Shown piece by piece: positions 14,631-58,778 of a stretch of DNA of 64,000 nucleotides. The translations under genes were made by a program, and so were the position numbers. The notes under the pieces were generated by a model. That model saw nothing but the letters and a program-made list of their open reading frames with translations, had not been told where the DNA came from and did not search any database. Source of the stretch: a virus; the IMG/VR virus record IMGVR_UViG_3300027021_000002, positions 3,572 to 67,571 of that record; one strand, given 5' to 3'. The number at the start of each line of letters is the position of its first letter. Position 1 is the stretch's first letter.

Positions 14631-15854
14631 TTATGCGGTTTGTCTCCTCTCACACAACAAACTTTGTGACATCCGTATAACTTTAATTTTCTTATAACTA
14701 ACCGTTATCTTTTCGCCACTTAGTTTTCCAAGACTAAAATATCCATTATTTCTTCTTCCCAAAATAAAATATTTATTATTATTAAATAATACTTTATCAA
14801 ATAGCTTATATCCAAAAACATATTTAGTAGCTTTATTTGCCTTGCGATATCCACCTTTTAAAATAGTATCTTTATGAAGGCGTCTATTTTGATTACGTAT
14901 CTTTTTTATATAAAACCACACATTATTTGGTTTTACAGATACATTACCACCAATACACAGCGCATCAATACGATGTGATTTGGGTAAATTATGTTTTATT
15001 CTAACGGTTTTCGTAATATACCCATAAGTTAAGTTTACGTCTAAATATAGGTCTTTTAGCTTGTTATAAAATGCACGGCGCATGACCCCCATAAAAGCCG
15101 CATCACGAAACGATTTCCCGCGTTTTAAATTGAGTTTTAGTTCACCTCGATGATATGCTTTATGACACTCTTTACAAAGTGTAATAAGGTTATCAGGTGC
15201 GTTCCCACCAGTACTACAGCTTTCAATATGGTGCACGTTGAGAATATTGTTCTTACAACCCTTCTTACCATGGCATCTATGTCCATCACGCCACAAAACA
15301 TATTCTCGTACATTCCAAAACTCTAATTGATCACCTTGCTGATATTCTTCACCTTGTATATCTGGATTCTTAATTTTTTGAATATCAAAACTTGCTACTT
15401 CAACTATTATTTTTGACACAGGAAGTATTTTATGTATATCAGCAACCACTTTTAAATGAGTATTAATCTTGTGTTGTATAGACGGGGCAAACCAGCCTTT
15501 TTCTTTTTTCCTATTTAAAAATCTAGCTTGACGATATCTGGTTTTGCGACTTCTACGATTACGACGGTATGCTTTTCTTTGTGCTAAAAGCTTAACAATA
15601 TCATTCCTTAGCTCTACTTCAGCAGAAAATAGTTCTTCTTTTTCAGTAGTAGCAAATAGCCCAACTATCTTACTACCAGCATCCACACCTAAATTAATTT
15701 CTTGTTTCGTTTCGCCAGTCGCATATTGCAACTGAATTGTAAAAGGCTCCTTTTTAACTACTTTTGCCTTACCATCACGCAATAGCCTTCTTGCTTTTGC
15801 TGGCGTGGTAGGCATGAGTGGTTCGCCTCTTTGATTTAATACGTATACTCGCAA
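14631..15854 (-). CDS. iscB: IscB RNA-guided endonuclease (OMEGA system)
   Basis: N-terminal 'PLMPT' domain, RuvC-I 'GVDAG', Arg-rich bridge helix, RuvC-II 'IVEVASF', HNH 'VHHI...NLITLCKECH', RuvC-III 'HRIDALCI'; TTG start with RBS AAGGAG. Confidence 0.95.
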   Translation of the reverse strand: MRVYVLNQRGEPLMPTTPAKARRLLRDGKAKVVKKEPFTIQLQYATGETKQEINLGVDAGSKIVGLFATTEKEELFSAEVELRNDIVKLLAQRKAYRRNRRSRKTRYRQARFLNRKKEKGWFAPSIQHKINTHLKVVADIHKILPVSKIIVEVASFDIQKIKNPDIQGEEYQQGDQLEFWNVREYVLWRDGHRCHGKKGCKNNILNVHHIESCSTGGNAPDNLITLCKECHKAYHRGELKLNLKRGKSFRDAAFMGVMRRAFYNKLKDLYLDVNLTYGYITKTVRIKHNLPKSHRIDALCIGGNVSVKPNNVWFYIKKIRNQNRRLHKDTILKGGYRKANKATKYVFGYKLFDKVLFNNNKYFILGRRNNGYFSLGKLSGEKITVSYKKIKVIRMSQSLLCERRQTA

Positions 15855-15861
15855 GTTACGT

Positions 15862-16085
15862 TCTCCTTTGCAGAAGTTGGTTGTTCTTCGCCAATGTTAT
15901 CGTGTGGTTTTATATGATAGCAACACTGTTCCTACTCCTCAGAACTGTTTAATCACTATCCTTAGAGCTACAGACTAGAACGCGCATCCGTAGGTAACTA
16001 TATATTCACACATAACGTAGTCAGTTAAGACTTAGGCTAATCAGCTAAAAATAAATTTCACAAATTAATGTCGAGTAGCTAATCA
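15862..16085 (-). ncRNA. omegaRNA (HEARO-type) scaffold of IscB
   Basis: Minus strand carries the hallmark blocks GATTAGCCTAAGTC...GACTACGTT...TACCTACGGATG...CTAGTCTGTAGCTCTAAGG...GATTAAACAGTTCTGA...GGAACAGTG...AACATTGGCGAAG immediately upstream of iscB. Confidence 0.88.
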
Positions 16086-16356: not shown

Positions 16357-16890
16357 TTATAAAGAATTTGTTCTCATTTTTTGCATTAAATATGCCGAAA
16401 AGATGTGACTATTCCTGATTTTAAGGATAATTTCTTTGATTTGTCTGTGAATATTTGATTTTACCGTATTTTTCTTTTTTGCAATTTGATCTAATGTCAT
16501 GTTATAAATAAAGTATGCGGACAATAAATATTTCTGATCATCATTACATATAGATTCAATTGCGCTGTGTAATGTTTGTCTAAAATCAACATCATAAATA
16601 ATTTCGTGAGGAGGTCTTATGCTAGGCGGTTTACCATCGGGAACAATACCTTCGAGATTGCGCCGATCTTCTATATATTTCCGATATCTGCGGATACGTC
16701 GCAATGTATACTTGCGCTGTTCGAGAGGAAGGTATGATTCTAATTCATAAATCACATCGTGCGTATCACGAATCATACTGTTAATAATTCTGACGGATCG
16801 GACATCGTTTTGGCCTTGATATTTTCTTTTTGCTTTAAAGAGACTGCTGAGTGTGCGGCGATATTGATTATATAATTCCAGGTTCGTCAT
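16357..16890 (-). CDS. Putative late transcription regulator with sigma-70 region 4-type HTH
   Basis: C-terminal 'MTLDQIAKKKNTVKSNIHRQIKEII' HTH; located at the head of the morphogenesis operon (ArpU/RinA-like position). Confidence 0.6.
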   Translation of the reverse strand: MTNLELYNQYRRTLSSLFKAKRKYQGQNDVRSVRIINSMIRDTHDVIYELESYLPLEQRKYTLRRIRRYRKYIEDRRNLEGIVPDGKPPSIRPPHEIIYDVDFRQTLHSAIESICNDDQKYLLSAYFIYNMTLDQIAKKKNTVKSNIHRQIKEIILKIRNSHIFSAYLMQKMRTNSL

Positions 16891-17200
16891 GAATGATTAC
16901 TTCCACCATTTCATCGATATAGTTTTTTAAAGCGTTAGTTAAATTAGCACCGTTGATATAGTAATATTCTTGATCGTCGTAGTATTTAACAAGAATAGTC
17001 CCGCTAGAATTAAATACTTCCTGTTTGTTTTGGTCAAGGACTTGAATTTGATATCGATCCCGACAATCAGAACGACTCCACAGCGCATCATCAAGATCAT
17101 GAATTTGCATTGGTCGGTGAAGCTTGAATGTTTTGAATAGTGCGTCGCAGTTTTGTGACAAGAGGCGATTAGTGTATTTCAGTTTTCCACTGAGGTGCAT
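16868..17200 (-). CDS. Hypothetical protein
   Basis: 110 aa, RBS GAAAGGA. Confidence 0.6.
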   Translation of the reverse strand: MHLSGKLKYTNRLLSQNCDALFKTFKLHRPMQIHDLDDALWSRSDCRDRYQIQVLDQNKQEVFNSSGTILVKYYDDQEYYYINGANLTNALKNYIDEMVEVIIHDEPGII

Positions 17201-17402
17201 GATAGTTATTTTCCTTTCAATTCATAGTAATCAAGTAGGGTTTAGCTGAGAGTAAAAAATTTATGTAGAAATTTTGACCATACCCCTCCAGTAAGGTAAA
17301 ACCCTTCGGAAAGTATTTTCGATCCTTTTCCCAATATTGTTTAGTTGGATTCTGAGCTTAGAATGGACGCTAGGCAGTTTTGGTGGGGGATGAGTGTCAA
17401 AA

Positions 17403-17924
17403 TCACGCCACCTCCTCTTCGGACTCTTCAAAAGCAATGTTGATAAAGTATTTATTTTGATTGTTTCGGATTATAATTACAAAACCAATTGACAGATCTG
17501 TTGGTAAGGTTGATTCGGGTATAAGGTTTACCCATTTTAATTTTGGTAATTTAATCTGTTTCTCATCAAGGCGAATACTGTTATTATTATTGATGGTTCG
17601 ATAATGCTGAATCGGATCTGCTTTTCTTTTCCGTTTGGGAAACCCGGTCTCTTTAGCAAAGAATTTGTCAAGATCTTTTCTGACATCCCACCAAACAGCA
17701 TTCAACGCTACGTTGTCCGCATCCTTTGTATTATCTAACAATGGTTTATAAACCGAATACGGATTAATAATACACTTACCAGAATTATTAAACTCTTTCT
17801 GTTCATCTTCCAACATTCGATTATAAACAAATCTTTTATAAGCTAGTGTTTGATTGATAATTCTCTTTTGATCTGTGTCGGGATATAAATTACACCGCAC
17901 AAATCGATATTGTTTCTTAGACAA
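17403..17924 (-). CDS. TnpB-derived protein consisting of the N-terminal HTH/REC/WED region only (no RuvC)
   Basis: Aligns by eye with the N-terminal half of the TnpB at 46614 ('RFVYNRMLE', 'GFPKRK', 'IRLDEKQIKLPKLKWV', 'KYFINI'); stops where RuvC-I would begin; intact RBS GGAGG plus TTG. Confidence 0.8.
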   Translation of the reverse strand: MSKKQYRFVRCNLYPDTDQKRIINQTLAYKRFVYNRMLEDEQKEFNNSGKCIINPYSVYKPLLDNTKDADNVALNAVWWDVRKDLDKFFAKETGFPKRKRKADPIQHYRTINNNNSIRLDEKQIKLPKLKWVNLIPESTLPTDLSIGFVIIIRNNQNKYFINIAFEESEEEVA

Positions 17925-17971
17925 AATAGTCCCTCCGAATTTTATACTATATATAACGTTTCTTTTCCCTC

Positions 17972-18330
17972 GTTAGTAGTAATACTCATTACATTCGTAT
18001 TACTACTAACTCGTAAACTTAGTATTCATTACATTCATACTAAGTTTAATTAAAGGTAACTACATATATATTATAATTTGCTATCACAAATTATGGGTTA
18101 ATGTCTCTCGACGAGACATTTGAAATCGTATTCTTCGAATACAATTTCGTTTAAAGATATTGGGAATGTGTTAAGAACGTGCGCTTCGCGCCTGTTACAA
18201 GAAAAAGTATATTGATATTGTTAAGGTTTGGTGATAGACATAAATGCTGCGGAATGAATTGGGTTAGTGAGGGGAATATCGTAATTGCTCGACGCAATTA
18301 CTCTTAAAAGCTTACTCCGTGCGCTTTTAA
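17972..18330. repeat. Array of at least 8 inverted repeats with shared loops
   Basis: 14-bp and 12-bp stems both with loop TCATTACATTC (17972-18010, 18014-18048); two 8-bp stems with loop TCGAC (18100-18120, 18281-18301); TTC-loop hairpins (18122-18148, 18181-18191); others at 18073-18094 and 18304-18330. Confidence 0.85.
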
Positions 18331-18357: not shown

Positions 18358-18386
18358 ACTATACCATAAAAATTTAATTTTGTCAA
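18358..18386 (-). promoter_or_regulatory. Leftward sigma-A promoter
   Basis: TTGACA-17-TATAGT with extended TG, on the minus strand. Confidence 0.8.
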
Positions 18387-18443: not shown

Positions 18444-19520
18444 ATGGCGATGGAAAATGTTGTAAGTATTCGTAATGGGAAAGAAAAGAGAAGCTTTGTT
18501 TCGTGTTATGATCAATGGATGGGAGTACGTAAACAGAAGAGTTATAATACGTTTCGTGCTTATCGAAAGACGTTTAATGATTTCTTTGGTTTTAAATTAA
18601 ATAAATTACCGGAGGAAGTAACTTGGGATGATTTGATTGATATCACCAATGATGACTTTGAGGATTTTCGTCAACATCTACTTGCAACTGGAAATGTCCA
18701 AGTGATTACAACTAAGTATGCTTTAGCTCATTTGTCCTGGTTATGGAAGAAGATAGCGGTTAGGGATAGTCGTATTAATCCATTAACTCCTAAATTAGAT
18801 CCACTACCAGATAAAGATAGAAATCCATTGCAACTGGGAAGTGATTCGCTTGATGAAAGAGAGATTAGGTTGTTAATTGATTATGCGAAGACGGTAGATT
18901 TCCATCCTGAGATACAAGCTTTGTTTTTTGAGTTTGCGGCGATAGTTCCATTACGTATCAGTGCGTTGCGCAAGGTGTCGTGGAATAACTTGATGCAGCA
19001 GATGAATTACAAAGAAGGTAAAATGGTGTGGGTGGTAGGAATTTATGATAAGACAAGGTGGCACTATCACCGAATTTCTGATGATTTGTATGATCGGCTG
19101 CAAATACTAAAATCTATTTGCCATAGGGGGGTTGGGTTTAAAGATCAAGACGAAGATCCAATATTCTATATTTCTAAAGAAAAGCTGATGGAAACCATTG
19201 ATGGTTTTAAAGAGAAATATGGGATCGACAAAAAGATTACCTTTCATTCACTAAAGAAATGTTCAATTGGATTGGCGATGGAGCAGTATGGCGGGGATTT
19301 GCGCAAAGTGTTAGATCATTCACAGCACAATGGACCGGAGATGGTTATTCGGTACGCTAAAGAACAGGATGTGCTGAATGGGACGATGGCGACCGTGTTT
19401 GAAGATAGAGATAAGGCTAGGGATAAGGTGTTTGGTTTGTCTAAAGAGGATTTGGTAGCGGCGATGTCGAAGTGTAGTTATAGTGTAATTGCCCAGGTTG
19501 CACAACAGGTAAATGGCTAG
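18444..19520 (+). CDS. Tyrosine recombinase (phage integrase family)
   Basis: N-terminal core-binding domain; catalytic-type residues R ('PLRISAL'), K ('YDKT'), 'FHSLKK' (HxxK in place of HxxR), 'QH...VIRY' with the nucleophile Tyr. Confidence 0.85.
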   Translation: MAMENVVSIRNGKEKRSFVSCYDQWMGVRKQKSYNTFRAYRKTFNDFFGFKLNKLPEEVTWDDLIDITNDDFEDFRQHLLATGNVQVITTKYALAHLSWLWKKIAVRDSRINPLTPKLDPLPDKDRNPLQLGSDSLDEREIRLLIDYAKTVDFHPEIQALFFEFAAIVPLRISALRKVSWNNLMQQMNYKEGKMVWVVGIYDKTRWHYHRISDDLYDRLQILKSICHRGVGFKDQDEDPIFYISKEKLMETIDGFKEKYGIDKKITFHSLKKCSIGLAMEQYGGDLRKVLDHSQHNGPEMVIRYAKEQDVLNGTMATVFEDRDKARDKVFGLSKEDLVAAMSKCSYSVIAQVAQQVNG

Positions 19521-19575
19521 GATCGATTCTGAGGCGTTTTTCTAACTAATTAATAAGGAGAAAACGAACGGAACT

Positions 19576-19616
19576 ACCCCTACTAAGGCAATCACCTTAG
19601 TGTGGGGTTTATTTTT
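19576..19616 (+). terminator. Intrinsic terminator after the recombinase gene
   Basis: ACCCC-T-ACTAAGG/CCTTAGT-GT-GGGGT stem followed by TTATTTTT. Confidence 0.7.
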
Positions 19617-20212
19617 AAAATTCATTGTAATTAGTTTACTGAGAGTTAAAGTCTAGTAGTTTGGTAGGAAATAAGGGTGTATCATATCTAATTCTCATTT
19701 GTATCAGTGATCAGAAATACAACTCGTAATTATCTACGTCAATTACATTACTTTTATTTATAATTATTGTGGTTTTGGCAATTTGGCGAGATCCTTTTAT
19801 TTTGCTGCGGTCAAACAGGTAAATTGGGTGTTAATAGGGGTAATTCGTGTTGTCAAAATGGGAGGGGGAGTGGAGTATGTAGATTAGAAATGGCTACAAG
19901 CGTTGATGTGTAAAGGAAATTTGATGACGAATTGAACTCAATTTTGGTCGTCCTAGCGATGATGATGTACTCAGGCCATTTCTATGGAAATAAAAGCAAT
20001 TTTTATCAAAAAGTAGGGGGAGGGTAGGAAAGACCGATATTTCGGGATATTTTCGCATCGGTGACAAATCACTTTGTCAATGATACTGTCAGTAAAATGG
20101 TAAATATGGAAATAAATATATAAATGATGATCATCCAGGCGTTTTTATTTTTCGATATTATTTGTCATAATCCCCATAACAGGCCGAAAATTTATGATGG
20201 GATTTTAAATTC

Positions 20213-20299
20213 TTAATCCAATCTTAATAATCTTAATATCTACCTTAACAATATTAATATACACCTTAAATAAATTAAACCTGGCCTAAACAAATCTAA
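20213..20299 (+). repeat. Helically phased (T/C)TAA repeats in G-poor DNA
   Basis: YTAA starts at 20213, 20224, 20233, 20245, 20254, 20266, 20275, 20286, 20296 (mean spacing 10.4 bp); no G on the plus strand from 20202 to 20282. Confidence 0.75.
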
Positions 20300-46214: not shown

Positions 46215-46617
46215 AATAGCTGTCAAGGCTCATAGTGGACAAGTTGATAAGGGTGGGCAACCGTACATCCTTCATCCCTTGCGTGTTATGATGAAGATGA
46301 ATAATGATAGGGACAGGATTGTCGCGGTGCTGCATGATGTATTGGAAGACACGGATGTGACAATGGCTAGTTTGTCGGATCTAGGCTTCAGCGCAGATAT
46401 TTTAGGTCCACTTGCTATACTAACCAGATGTCCCGGCGAAGATTATATGAAGTATATTGCATGGGTGGCCCAAAATATAACCGCCAAACGAGTGAAACTG
46501 GCAGACTTAGATGATAATATGGATCTCGGGAGGCTGCATATAGTCGAGGATAAGGATTGGGCACGTTGGCAGAAGTATCGGAAAGCCAAGGAGTATTTGG
46601 AGGAAGTAGAGAAATGA
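46192..46617 (+). CDS. HD-domain phosphohydrolase, small alarmone hydrolase (Mesh1/SpoT-HD)-like
   Basis: 'AHSGQVDKGGQPYILHPLRV', 'AVLHDVLED', 'VKLADLDDN'. Confidence 0.85.
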   Translation: MDLEKAIEIAVKAHSGQVDKGGQPYILHPLRVMMKMNNDRDRIVAVLHDVLEDTDVTMASLSDLGFSADILGPLAILTRCPGEDYMKYIAWVAQNITAKRVKLADLDDNMDLGRLHIVEDKDWARWQKYRKAKEYLEEVEK

Positions 46618-47738
46618 AAAGGTATAAGGCATACAAATTTAAGTTACTTCCTAATCAAAAACAGGCCGAATACTTTGATAGAGCATTTGGCGCAGTACGT
46701 TTTGTATTTAATAAAATGCTAGAAGAACGTATAGAAATGGAAGAGTTATATTTTGATGATCCTGAAATATATAGACAACATGAGTTTAAGACTTATACAC
46801 AGATAAAACACGAAAATCCATGGCTTTACGAAATTGATAATCAGGCTTTGGCAAATGCGAAGTTGAATTTAACAAATGCCTATGTACGATTCCGTGACCA
46901 ACCGAATAATGGATATCCAAAATTTAAATCAAAGAAAAGATGTATGTCTTATACAACCAATAACAATACGTTTGGAAAAATCCGTATTGATGGCAAATAT
47001 ATCCAATTACCTAAGATTAAGTGGGTGAAGCTAATTCAACATCGAGAGTTACCAGCAGACGGACGTATTTTTAAATGTACCGTTTCTAAGTCTGCCACTA
47101 ATAAATATTATGTTAGTATATTAATTGAAAGAGATGTTGAGGAAATACAATATAAGGTTGATAAAGAAAAATCAATCGGTCTTGATATGGGATTAAAGAC
47201 TTTCTATACCGATAGCCAAGGCGTGAAGGTTAACAGCCCAATAGACTATTCTTATATAGATCAGAAGCTTTCTCGCGTCAATAGACAAATAAGCAAATGT
47301 GAAGTTGGAAGTAAAAATCGTGATAAGCTTCAATTAAAAGCAAATAAGCTTCATGAGAAGCTTACCAATCAACGCAAAGACTTTTTGCACAAGAAGGCTA
47401 GACAAATCGCAGATGAATATGATGTAGCGTGTATAGAGGGTCTTAGCGTAAAAGAAATGGGCCAACATTATGGATACGGAAAGATGGTTCAGAATAATAG
47501 TTGGGGTGTATTTGTTGAAATTTTGGGACACAAGCTTGAAGAGCGAGGTAAAAAATTAATTAAGGCTGATAAGTATTATCCTTCTTCGCAAACGTGTCAC
47601 AAATGTGGAAGGATTAATAAGGACCTAAAACTTAAAGACCGTATATGGATTTGTCCGTGTGGCGAAACGTTAGACCGCGACATCAACGCTGCAATCAACA
47701 TCCGTAATGAAGGGCTTAGACTACTGGCAACAAGCTAA
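46614..47738 (+). CDS. tnpB: TnpB RNA-guided endonuclease (IS605/IS607 type), solo
   Basis: HTH start 'YKAYKFKLLP'; RuvC 'GLDMG', 'IEGL', zinc finger 'CHKCG...CPCG', 'DRDINAAINI'. True start ATG 46614 overlaps the HD gene stop; no tnpA nearby. Confidence 0.93.
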   Translation: MKRYKAYKFKLLPNQKQAEYFDRAFGAVRFVFNKMLEERIEMEELYFDDPEIYRQHEFKTYTQIKHENPWLYEIDNQALANAKLNLTNAYVRFRDQPNNGYPKFKSKKRCMSYTTNNNTFGKIRIDGKYIQLPKIKWVKLIQHRELPADGRIFKCTVSKSATNKYYVSILIERDVEEIQYKVDKEKSIGLDMGLKTFYTDSQGVKVNSPIDYSYIDQKLSRVNRQISKCEVGSKNRDKLQLKANKLHEKLTNQRKDFLHKKARQIADEYDVACIEGLSVKEMGQHYGYGKMVQNNSWGVFVEILGHKLEERGKKLIKADKYYPSSQTCHKCGRINKDLKLKDRIWICPCGETLDRDINAAINIRNEGLRLLATS

Positions 47739-47744
47739 ATTGAA

Positions 47745-47839
47745 ATATGAACCTAGGGGTACTGGGGGATAGCCTATTGATACTTGGTGATTTGCGCCAT
47801 TGAGTAGGAAGCATGGCAACTTAGTTGCCGGTATGCCAC
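47745..47839 (+). ncRNA. TnpB reRNA/omegaRNA scaffold and right end
   Basis: Typical 'AACC...GGGGATAGCC...GGAAGC-hairpin' layout; terminal hairpin GCATGGCAAC-TTA-GTTGCCGGTATGC ending CCAC; putative guide starts at 47840. Confidence 0.7.
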
Positions 47840-56590: not shown

Positions 56591-57841
56591 TTGAAACGGG
56601 ATCGAGGTCAATTAGAAAATATCATACTTGCGTGTTGGCAAGAAAACGAAAAAAATCGCGTCGGACATGATGCGCTTAGAAGTTATCTCTGGGATAAGTT
56701 CAAAATAGAGCCTGGGCATATATCTTCGCTAATTTCTGGTGCCAAGCGTATTGAGGGCGTGAGTGATCAATACTTGTGTGCGCTGGCGATGGCAACATAT
56801 GAGGTGTTTGGCTGTCAGGGAAGCAATCCGAAAGAATTCTTTACTGATGCGGAACTACAAAAAGTAAAGGAGACATCTTTTGAACCAACAAATTCATTAA
56901 ATGGAGATCTTAAGTTTGATGACGTTTCTTATGTTTGCAATGATCATTATTTTACTACCATATCGTCTCAATATTTAAGAGCCTTATTAGATGAGGGAAG
57001 ATTAATTTATCGTCCAGAAACTCAGCGAGGAACTATTACAAAACGCCAAGGTGACGCGATTATTCAAAAGGTGAGAATAAATCGTAATAATGTTACTGAG
57101 ATCGCTAATGATATCGAAGAAAATAAATATGAGCCAACTACTCTAACCATGAATGTGGTTAAGGGGAGTGGCGAGATGGTTTATGACGCTCGTAGCAGAA
57201 CTTTGATTGTTAGCAAGGGAGCAGAGTGTAATTTGATTGATGGGTTGCATCGCACATATGGTGTTATTCAGGCCATGATAGAGAATCCTGAAATCAAGCA
57301 GCCGTGGGAGTTTAGAATAGTTAATTGGTCAATTGAAAAGGCTAAGGCTTTTATTTTCCAGGAGGATCATAAGACGCCTCTTACCAAAGAAGTGCGCGTT
57401 TCGATGGATCAGCATGACCTTTCAACACAAATTGTAAGTATGCTTAATCAGGAAATGCATAATGAGATGCAGGGGCGAATCGCAACTGACATTCGTAGCA
57501 TAACTAAAGGGAAAGCCTATACGCTTTTCAGTATGATGGTGGATTCTGTTCGCAAGTTTTTGAAACCTCAATATCAAAAAGATGTTGAATCTATGACTAA
57601 AAGGCTTATTAGCTTTTATAACGCTCTGATTCCTATTATTAATAACAAAGACGACCTAATGAAGTATTATCTGTTTTATGGGTATACACAATTGGCATCG
57701 ATTCTTCCATCTTTAGATAATCTTGAAGAAGTGATAATAGCATTGGATCACAACCCAATTGAGAATTATGGTCAAAAGACATCTTTGGCTACTAAACATA
57801 AAAAGACCATAGAGAGGTGGATTAACAATGCCGTGGTATAA
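56591..57841 (+). CDS. DGQHR/DndB(ParB-like)-domain protein, SPbeta YopQ/SroE-like
   Basis: 'QRG', 'PTTLTMN', 'LIDGLHR', 'FIFQED' ParB/DndB-type motifs; directly upstream of a YopR-like gene as in SPbeta-like phages. Confidence 0.7.
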   Translation: MKRDRGQLENIILACWQENEKNRVGHDALRSYLWDKFKIEPGHISSLISGAKRIEGVSDQYLCALAMATYEVFGCQGSNPKEFFTDAELQKVKETSFEPTNSLNGDLKFDDVSYVCNDHYFTTISSQYLRALLDEGRLIYRPETQRGTITKRQGDAIIQKVRINRNNVTEIANDIEENKYEPTTLTMNVVKGSGEMVYDARSRTLIVSKGAECNLIDGLHRTYGVIQAMIENPEIKQPWEFRIVNWSIEKAKAFIFQEDHKTPLTKEVRVSMDQHDLSTQIVSMLNQEMHNEMQGRIATDIRSITKGKAYTLFSMMVDSVRKFLKPQYQKDVESMTKRLISFYNALIPIINNKDDLMKYYLFYGYTQLASILPSLDNLEEVIIALDHNPIENYGQKTSLATKHKKTIERWINNAVV

Positions 57842-58778
57842 TGAAGATCGCAAGAGGAAGTTTTTAAAAAGCAGCGACTTTTCAAGTGCTCAGAAAAAGG
57901 CTTACAAATTTCTGTTCAAGGCTTGCTATCCCACAGAACAAGCTTTTGATTCAGACGTGTCCGAATTTAGTACAACCGAATTTGAGAGCTTACTAAGTAG
58001 TTTTTTATCCACGTCATTAGAAAGCCTGAAAATGCGCACTAGTCTTATTCGTAGTTATATTGACTTTTGCATTAATAATGGATATGCGGAAACAAAAGAA
58101 GGTGATCCGCTACATATTAATGTTGCCGATGCTTATGTCGCAGAAGTCCTGGAGAAATTTGTGAGACCGGACGCTGAGGAAAAAAGATTTTTAGTTGGCA
58201 GGGATTTGGATAAGTTTATTGAATTTTGTAATAACCCACAGGATGCAGTTATCATTCAGTTGCTCCGCGAAGGTATTCGTGGTAGAAAACTAGAAGAGCT
58301 TAGTAATCTTCGTAGACAAGATGTGAATTTTAGTGACAATATAGTAACTCTGCGCCATGAAGATGGTAATAAAAGAGTATTGTCTGTTAGCCCTAAAACC
58401 ATAGAGCTAATTCAGGACGCCATAAATCAAAAGAAATATTACTTTAAAAACGGAGAAGCGACAGGGTACCTGAAAGAAATCAACTTAGAAGAATCTGATT
58501 ATATACTTCGTCCTGCCCATCGTCATGATGCTGACAAGTTCTTAAACCAAATTGGAATTAGTCGTCGTATTAAGGCAATGGCGAAATTGTATGGCAACTC
58601 TTTTATTACCGCCCATACTTTATTTGTAAGCGGCCAAATTGAATATGGAAGAATGCTGAAGGAAAGGGATGGAATTGATGAGTTGTATAAGAAGCACTAT
58701 TTGGAGATCTGTGAACGCTTTGGTTTGGCACCTACACAGGCTAACGCTGTTAAGTATGCTATCCAAAAACATTTGTAA
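57828..58778 (+). CDS. Recombinase-fold repressor, SPbeta YopR (MrpR/SroF)-like
   Basis: N-terminus 'YNEDRKRKFL', 'NPQDAVIIQLLREGI', 'SFITAHTLFVSGQIEY', 'RFG'; lacks the HxxR arginine and a clear catalytic H/Y pair. Confidence 0.75.
   Translation: MPWYNEDRKRKFLKSSDFSSAQKKAYKFLFKACYPTEQAFDSDVSEFSTTEFESLLSSFLSTSLESLKMRTSLIRSYIDFCINNGYAETKEGDPLHINVADAYVAEVLEKFVRPDAEEKRFLVGRDLDKFIEFCNNPQDAVIIQLLREGIRGRKLEELSNLRRQDVNFSDNIVTLRHEDGNKRVLSVSPKTIELIQDAINQKKYYFKNGEATGYLKEINLEESDYILRPAHRHDADKFLNQIGISRRIKAMAKLYGNSFITAHTLFVSGQIEYGRMLKERDGIDELYKKHYLEICERFGLAPTQANAVKYAIQKHL

Follow-up and report, generated by a model that had tools for sequence, protein, structure and literature searches.

Introduction

The closest described relatives of the locus studied here are the TnpB proteins of IS200/IS605 elements and the exaptations that have come from them. 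In TnpB the WED domain is an OB fold, the cleft between WED and REC grips the TAM duplex at its point of strand separation, and a hairpin stem is held by WED strands 4-5 (PMC10097598). The contacts to the reRNA come mostly from the RuvC lobe, and in the ISDra2 protein WED ends at residue 176 and RuvC starts at residue 185 (PMC10097598). RuvC also serves in the dCas12f-sigmaE system, where sigmaE docks on this domain via a C-terminal extension (PMC12259091). Published TnpB exaptations retain at least one of two parts, the RuvC lobe and the guide RNA, and a clade that consists of WED and REC only would mean that the half responsible for recognition can serve a purpose by itself.

The window (the whole stretch of 64,000 nucleotides that was analysed) belongs to a complete phage genome of 125,197 bp with a 127-bp terminal overlap. 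The genome encodes YonJ_N and YonG_N domains, a DnaB helicase and Pol III alpha, and its terminase is closest to that of Brevibacillus phage Sundance (52%), so the phage is SPbeta-like; we infer a Bacillota host. The WED+REC locus lies where a leftward late cluster and a rightward early cluster diverge. The minimum of the cumulative GC skew coincides with it, which may merely mirror gene orientation. In SPbeta the genome opening or pac site lies at the equivalent junction (10.1101/2021.11.22.469490), and we found no paper that places a replication origin in SPbeta-like phages. Our searches detected no phage primase, and no Y1 TnpA is present anywhere in the 125-kb genome.

Results

A TnpB recognition lobe that ends before RuvC

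A preliminary description of this DNA had read a 173-aa open reading frame as the HTH/REC/WED half of TnpB, ending cleanly where RuvC would begin, with an intact ribosome-binding site and neither a RuvC remnant nor an reRNA downstream. All of these points held up. The features concerned are the following.

17403..17924, minus strand: RuvC-less TnpB derivative of 173 aa that has only the WED+REC lobe and starts at TTG (from profiles, model, orthologues, selection and clade)
17932..17937, minus strand: ribosome-binding site GGAGG (from sequence; a GAGG-type site before the TTG start is kept in four orthologues)
46614..47839, plus strand: full-length TnpB outside the family clade, D/E/D triad intact, with an reRNA of its own (listed for comparison)
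17310..17395, minus strand: conserved non-coding block 3' of the gene, unstructured

Profile and structure matches agree on what the protein is. Pfam HTH_OrfB_IS605 scores over its cut-off at residues 9-50, NCBIfam IS200_TnpB aligns over profile positions 5-170 of 360 (E 2.6e-27), and residues 2-178 of the 46614 TnpB align with the protein at 30% identity. The AlphaFold model (pLDDT 89) finds the REC/WED part of TnpB as its best PDB match (E 1e-13), with TM scores of 0.78/0.81 to 8ex9_A, the ISDra2 TnpB. The WED+REC lobe is present and a RuvC domain with its D/E/D triad is absent; by the ISDra2 domain limits the protein stops within the WED-RuvC linker, about 10 residues short of RuvC-I.

The missing half does not appear elsewhere. 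A tblastn search with the C-terminal half of the 46614 protein found no RuvC remnant downstream or in the rest of the 125-kb genome (best E 0.6), the 46614 gene itself apart. The reRNA scaffold signature is absent 3' of every RuvC-less allele and present in an independent positive control and in 10/10 reference TnpB 3' ends, the signature being a short simple motif derived from those same 10 ends. Rfam gave no reRNA match downstream of the 173-aa gene. The conserved block at 17310..17395 was considered as an reRNA and rejected, as it is unstructured and also occurs in loci without the gene, which makes it part of the downstream operon.

Comparison of the alleles with the N-halves of full-length TnpBs shows that the TnpB-conserved residues R31, N35, D70, F89, P96, Y108, L-P-K-L-K-W and Y159 are kept, and the lobes are basic (pI 9.2-10.1). 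With the REC/WED motifs of full-length TnpB retained, a nucleic-acid-binding role is plausible. The counterparts of the ISDra2 TAM readers K76, F77 and Q80 differ among alleles (N/S/H, V/F/T/L/S and N/H/W).

The 46614 TnpB has no transposase, its start overlaps the upstream stop codon, and its predicted guide matches at most 8 nt elsewhere in the genome. An IscB gene with a HEARO omega-RNA lies at 14631-16083 on the minus strand, between the 82-aa gene and yonJ. As none of the related loci has it, it is a recent insertion. The intact TnpB and the IscB, together with the retained TAM-binding lobe, are what can be said for the earlier suggestion that the 173-aa protein is a dominant negative, or for its being a decoy; in either form it would inhibit TnpB/Cas12f nucleases, the 46614 element among them. 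We know of no dimer in ISDra2-type TnpB that such an inhibitor could poison. The suggestion found no support: the lobe falls in a clade separate from the 46614 protein and is 30% identical to it, it lacks the RuvC lobe that most reRNA contacts require (PMC10097598), the 46614 guide has no match in the locus, and the head of a late operon would be poor timing for counter-defence. We consider an inhibitor very unlikely.

Alleles, synteny and selection

Six alleles are known in all including that of the window, at 36-62% identity to the window protein. The further alleles are P0004 (62%), P0013 (40%), P0014 (43%; 164 aa from its TTG start) and P0015, which has a 70-aa N-terminal extension, together with a partial allele in L038. 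The alleles end 4-13 residues past the last WED strand, with tails that are unrelated to one another. In a tree with 60 full-length TnpB N-halves, including that of 46614, the five full alleles group together as a single clade (100/100). When IMG/VR, JGI and GTDB were searched with the protein, its neighbours and the DNA motifs, chance matches, ordinary TnpBs and a single additional variant of the leader came up, and neither a prophage nor a host was among them. TnpB-N-like proteins of 174-194 aa also form clusters in the ESM Atlas.

Gene order was read in L003, L004/L033/L034 and L031, the contigs long enough to show neighbours. It runs from the divergent tyrosine-recombinase-like gene through the promoter, a leader of ~430-510 nt, the RuvC-less gene, a 110-aa gene (absent in L031), a sigma-like gene and an 82-93-aa gene to yonJ, yonG and the terminase. 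The neighbours are the same in all loci long enough, and we see neither the TnpA nor the several insertion sites expected of a mobile element.

Nei-Gojobori dN/dS across pairs is ~0.1-0.45 (window-L001 0.21; L003-L038 0.11), figures that are rough since synonymous sites are near saturation. The window-L001 pN/pS is 0.39 (bootstrap 0.29-0.50), and every pN/pS interval lies below 1. The dN/dS of the RuvC-less gene overlaps the range of the adjoining sigma-like and recombinase genes.

These observations bear on whether the gene could be a functionless, decaying IS remnant. TnpB ORFs with the N-half only do often arise by nonsense splits, as in P0160, a chance split taken for contrast, in which the RuvC half follows immediately and tnpA precedes. 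The gene also evolves faster than most of its neighbours (39% identity between window and L003 against 53-83%) and is missing in L035. However, frame, start and end point are kept in six alleles across near-saturated synonymous divergence, with pN/pS intervals below 1, and monophyly, synteny and the lack of RuvC and tnpA remains speak against decay as well. The remnant reading is largely refuted, and we regard it as highly improbable. Domestication had been proposed at the outset, to be judged by a truncation and synteny common to homologues, dN/dS well below 1 and the lack of RuvC remnants, and on each of these it is borne out. As far as comparative sequence evidence goes, the RuvC-less lobe is a selected gene and not a decaying IS, and as a nuclease-dead, immobilised TnpB under selection the family shares one trait of TldR.

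Neighbouring genes

17403..17924 is followed leftward by two genes, and a third diverges from it.

16868..17200, minus strand: 110-aa conserved protein, family not assigned; absent in L031
16357..16890, minus strand: sigma-70 region-4 / ECF-like protein, probable late-gene regulator (TIGR02937 at 41.4 bits against a cut-off of 42.9; PHROG sigma-factor matches)
18444..19520, plus strand: tyrosine-recombinase-like gene, divergent; HxxR motif variable in orthologues

The model of the 110-aa protein is of low confidence (pLDDT 61) and gives weak matches to small beta-barrels (best natural Z 4.9). In the orthologues of the recombinase-like protein HxxR reads HSLK or QSFR, so its catalysis may be altered. 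The genome has a YopR-like gene elsewhere, at window 57828-58778.

In every long-enough locus the sigma-like gene comes first or second after the lobe, a proximity that invites comparison with dCas12f-sigmaE and would fit an RNA-guided activator acting with the sigma-like protein. Against such an activator, both RuvC and a guide RNA are absent, and L035 retains its sigma-like gene with no lobe present; we find it a very improbable explanation.

Several short matches were observed around these genes. About 60 nt directly 3' of the recombinase-like gene (window 19540-19620, plus strand) match the block that follows the lobe in L003 (76%, E 6e-7), and the other phages do not have it there. A motif containing AACAGG (window 20170-20190, plus strand) occurs to the right of the recombinase gene in 4/4 loci, at a point where strand composition flips, and resembles the inverted flank of hairpin H3 (18181-18200, minus strand); it is possibly a recombination, terminus or pac signal. 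Outside the window, genome positions 106065-106083 match the L003 downstream block exactly over 19 nt and adjoin a putative large serine recombinase, and the gap at this place is likely the attP region.

An eight-hairpin array between promoter and gene

The gene had been described as following a leftward sigma-A promoter and a hairpin leader, and both are found.

18358..18386, minus strand: sigma-A-type promoter, leftward, with -35, 17-nt spacer and extended -10 (TG); 11/12 matches, kept in L001, L003, L004, L031 and L035
18396..18424, plus strand: divergent promoter of the recombinase-like gene, 10/12 matches
17972..18330, minus strand: eight-hairpin array, seven with G...A loops; candidate folded single-stranded-DNA element (from folding, covariation and loops)
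18281..18301, minus strand: hairpin H2, GTCGA loop, three compensatory positions
18181..18191, minus strand: hairpin H3, GCGAAGC mini-hairpin; GCGTTAGC instead in L001 and L032
18122..18148, minus strand: hairpin H4, loop GAA; orthologues GTA, GACA, GAA, GTTA
18100..18120, minus strand: hairpin H5, the second with a GTCGA loop; compensatory changes at two positions
17972..18048, minus strand: long hairpins H7 and H8, 11-nt loops; kept in the gene-less L035

The promoter scan overall was not above chance (9 found against 13 expected), and the leftward site is supported by its conservation in all orthologues. The 430-nt leader folds far beyond its shuffles, with z = -6.4 as RNA and -5.8 as DNA. 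In the stems 9/31 pairs changed on both sides, unmatched by any shuffle or slid register, a result that comes from four sequences, which also gave the structure itself. Across orthologues 121/124 stem cells are Watson-Crick and 2 are G-T.

What the structure is made of can be asked from its loops. Seven of the eight array hairpins are closed by G...A, against 8% of background hairpins in the genome, and six G...A-loop hairpins fall in the 430-nt leader against at most two in any other 430-nt stretch. All 15 short loops across orthologues are GAA, GTA, GTTA or GACA, and none is a GNRA or UUCG loop of the RNA kind. These are strand-specific GNA/GNNA mini-hairpins with Watson-Crick stems. For one such hairpin, GCGAAAGC, the RNA form melts at 39 C against 76.5 C for the DNA, ~37 C lower, this being the sole RNA counterpart quoted (PMC13037366). 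The exchange of GCGAAGC for GCGTTAGC resembles the difference between the mini-hairpins of the G4 and the St-1/alpha3 primase origins (PMC13037366). The 11-nt loop of H7/H8 carries a compensatory change in L035. One possible structure for these 11-nt loops combines tandem G.A pairs with two base pairs and a GTA triloop. Given the G...A loops, the near-absence of G-T pairs and the mini-hairpin exchange, we read the array as a single-stranded DNA structure of the minus strand, and consider this fold distinctly more probable than an RNA one. A retron-like origin of the hairpins was rejected, as no reverse transcriptase was found.

The array lies inside the transcribed leader and might fold as RNA, and the partner of the lobe could be the leader RNA: the lobe would then autoregulate, attenuate or antiterminate the late operon, including the sigma-like gene, or the leader would be a substitute scaffold or guide. 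This would agree with the position of the array, which on the strand that is transcribed follows the promoter and precedes the start codon, with its RNA fold (z -6.4 and -4.1), and with the binding of an RNA stem by TnpB WED strands 4-5 (PMC10097598), and the co-loss in L035 described below fits it equally. The two GUCGA pentaloops may recall boxB-type loops. The 0/15 GNRA or UUCG short loops and the almost absent G-U pairs speak against it, and neither a minus-strand terminator for antitermination in the leader nor a conserved guide-target pair across the loci compared (L003, L004, L031) was found. A 20/21-nt match of the leader at ~18207-18227 to window 20242-20262 was rejected as a guide-target pair, having no equivalent in these three loci. 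We hold the leader-RNA reading to be unlikely. The hairpin leader of the preliminary description is thus a real structure, and the part less favoured is its reading as RNA. The nucleic-acid-binding regulator proposed there fares similarly: the kept REC/WED motifs make binding plausible, with folded DNA favoured over an RNA leader as the partner.

Loss of gene and hairpins, and other occupants of the slot

L035 has the promoter, the recombinase and the late operon, and lacks the RuvC-less gene and the GTCGA and GCGAAGC hairpins while keeping H7 and H8. It is nested among gene-bearing phages in the terminase tree (support 100) and the recombinase tree (97), so the absence of the gene is a loss. 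H7 and H8 sit between the two lost parts, thus a single contiguous deletion does not explain the pattern. The co-loss is one event in one lineage, whose intergenic region has wholly decayed to AT-rich sequence; at L035 2260-2800, ~550 nt of extremely AT-rich, TA-repeat-like DNA stand in place of hairpin core and gene. This one lineage without the module makes the module accessory. In L031 the protein is kept and H2 is lost. None of nine ordinary tnpB genes has the hairpin motifs ahead of it.

In phages whose sigma-like genes and downstream DNA are nearly identical, the slot has three different occupants, namely the allele of L001, that of L038 (37% identity between the two) and a RuvC-bearing TnpB end. 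The last is found in L036/L037/L042 at 1-220, upstream of the 110-aa gene, as a degenerate TnpB C-terminus without zinc finger, with the RuvC-II glutamate apparently lost and an reRNA-like 3' end; it looks TldR-like. The L036, L037 and L042 contigs all break at the same place.

Such variety could point to a guide-free binder of duplex DNA, with allele-specific targets at TAM-like words elsewhere (for example in phage-phage exclusion or promoter control) and the array as an independent neighbour. The three slot occupants on near-identical backbones and the TAM-pocket positions that differ by allele suit this well, as does the discordance of trees, the gene tree grouping the window with L001 and L031 and the terminase tree grouping it with L003. 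However, read-out of a 4-5-bp TAM by half a monomer would give low specificity, and the co-loss with the core hairpins would go unexplained. We think a duplex binder improbable.

Discussion

The account that we favour begins with an SPbeta-like phage ancestor whose late operon would have gained an IS200/IS605 tnpB as its first gene. The comparison of alleles shows, at the level of sequence, that the RuvC lobe and reRNA were lost and that WED (the OB fold) and REC were kept under purifying selection. The remaining lobe may now bind folded DNA with no need of a guide, and its likeliest partner would be the hairpin array ahead of its own gene. The array could fold when the minus strand becomes single-stranded, either by supercoil-driven extrusion behind the divergent promoters or in replication, and binding would then stabilise or gate it at the early/late junction. 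For this element we favour a role in strand initiation (of the priming type) or in DNA opening; a part in controlling transcription of the late operon would come a close second. That a guide-free lobe binds the folded array at this junction, as a candidate initiation/opening or late-transcription element, is our tentative preference and falls somewhat short of an even chance. The more specific proposal, in which a TnpB recognition lobe has become a guide-free reader of single-stranded DNA folds together with a co-evolving mini-hairpin array as a replication-priming or genome-opening signal, seems to us rather doubtful.

Several observations count against this account. The TAM-pocket residues vary across alleles while the loops are constant, which is the main objection to the array as a fixed target read by that pocket. 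H7 and H8 persist in L035 without the protein, L031 has the protein but no longer H2, and no phage primase was detected.

Whatever its partner, the RuvC-less lobe is a real, selected variant of TnpB domestication and apparently an undescribed one; in a literature search that covered few subscription papers we found no paper on a RuvC-less TnpB clade. Censuses based on RuvC would be expected to miss a domestication of this kind. The family offers a natural scaffold of 165-173 aa for probing guide-free TnpB recognition, a specific candidate cis-element at the early/late junction of SPbeta-like phages, and natural alleles for comparison (two RuvC-less types, one TldR-like type and one loss). If reading of folded single-stranded DNA proves true, it would be a protein-plus-DNA-structure module derived from TnpB.

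Comparison with known systems

The array resembles the G4/St-1/alpha3 primase origins, ssiA and the N4 vRNAP promoters (PMC13037366) in its GCGAAGC/GCGTTAGC-type mini-hairpins and in GNA loops on one strand. This likeness is one of sequence alone, and the setting differs, with eight hairpins in an array, in a 125-kb dsDNA phage, beside a TnpB-derived lobe.

With dCas12f-sigmaE (PMC12259091) the locus shares a dead TnpB-family protein beside a sigma-like gene. That system needs RuvC for sigma docking, a guide RNA and a Cas12f dimer, whereas none of these was found in the RuvC-less family. Immobilised TnpBs, and inactivated ones next to tyrosine recombinases, are among the clades of Altae-Tran et al. 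2023 (PMC10691335). In the sections consulted, the truncations are RuvC-only or WED+RuvC, the opposite half, and a RuvC-less clade is not described.

TldRs (10.1101/2023.11.30.569447; 10.64898/2026.09.22.753285) are likewise domesticated, non-cutting TnpBs; one of their clades is prophage-borne, and C-terminal erosion has been reported for them. They keep the bilobed body and a downstream gRNA, whereas the RuvC-less family has neither nuclease lobe nor gRNA. With TnpB of IS200/IS605 itself (ISDra2; 8H1J, 8EXA, 8EX9) the family shares the WED+REC fold (TM ~0.8), the core motifs and the architecture of the TAM pocket. It differs in having no RuvC/TNB lobe, reRNA signature or TnpA, and in being fixed at one phage locus under purifying selection.
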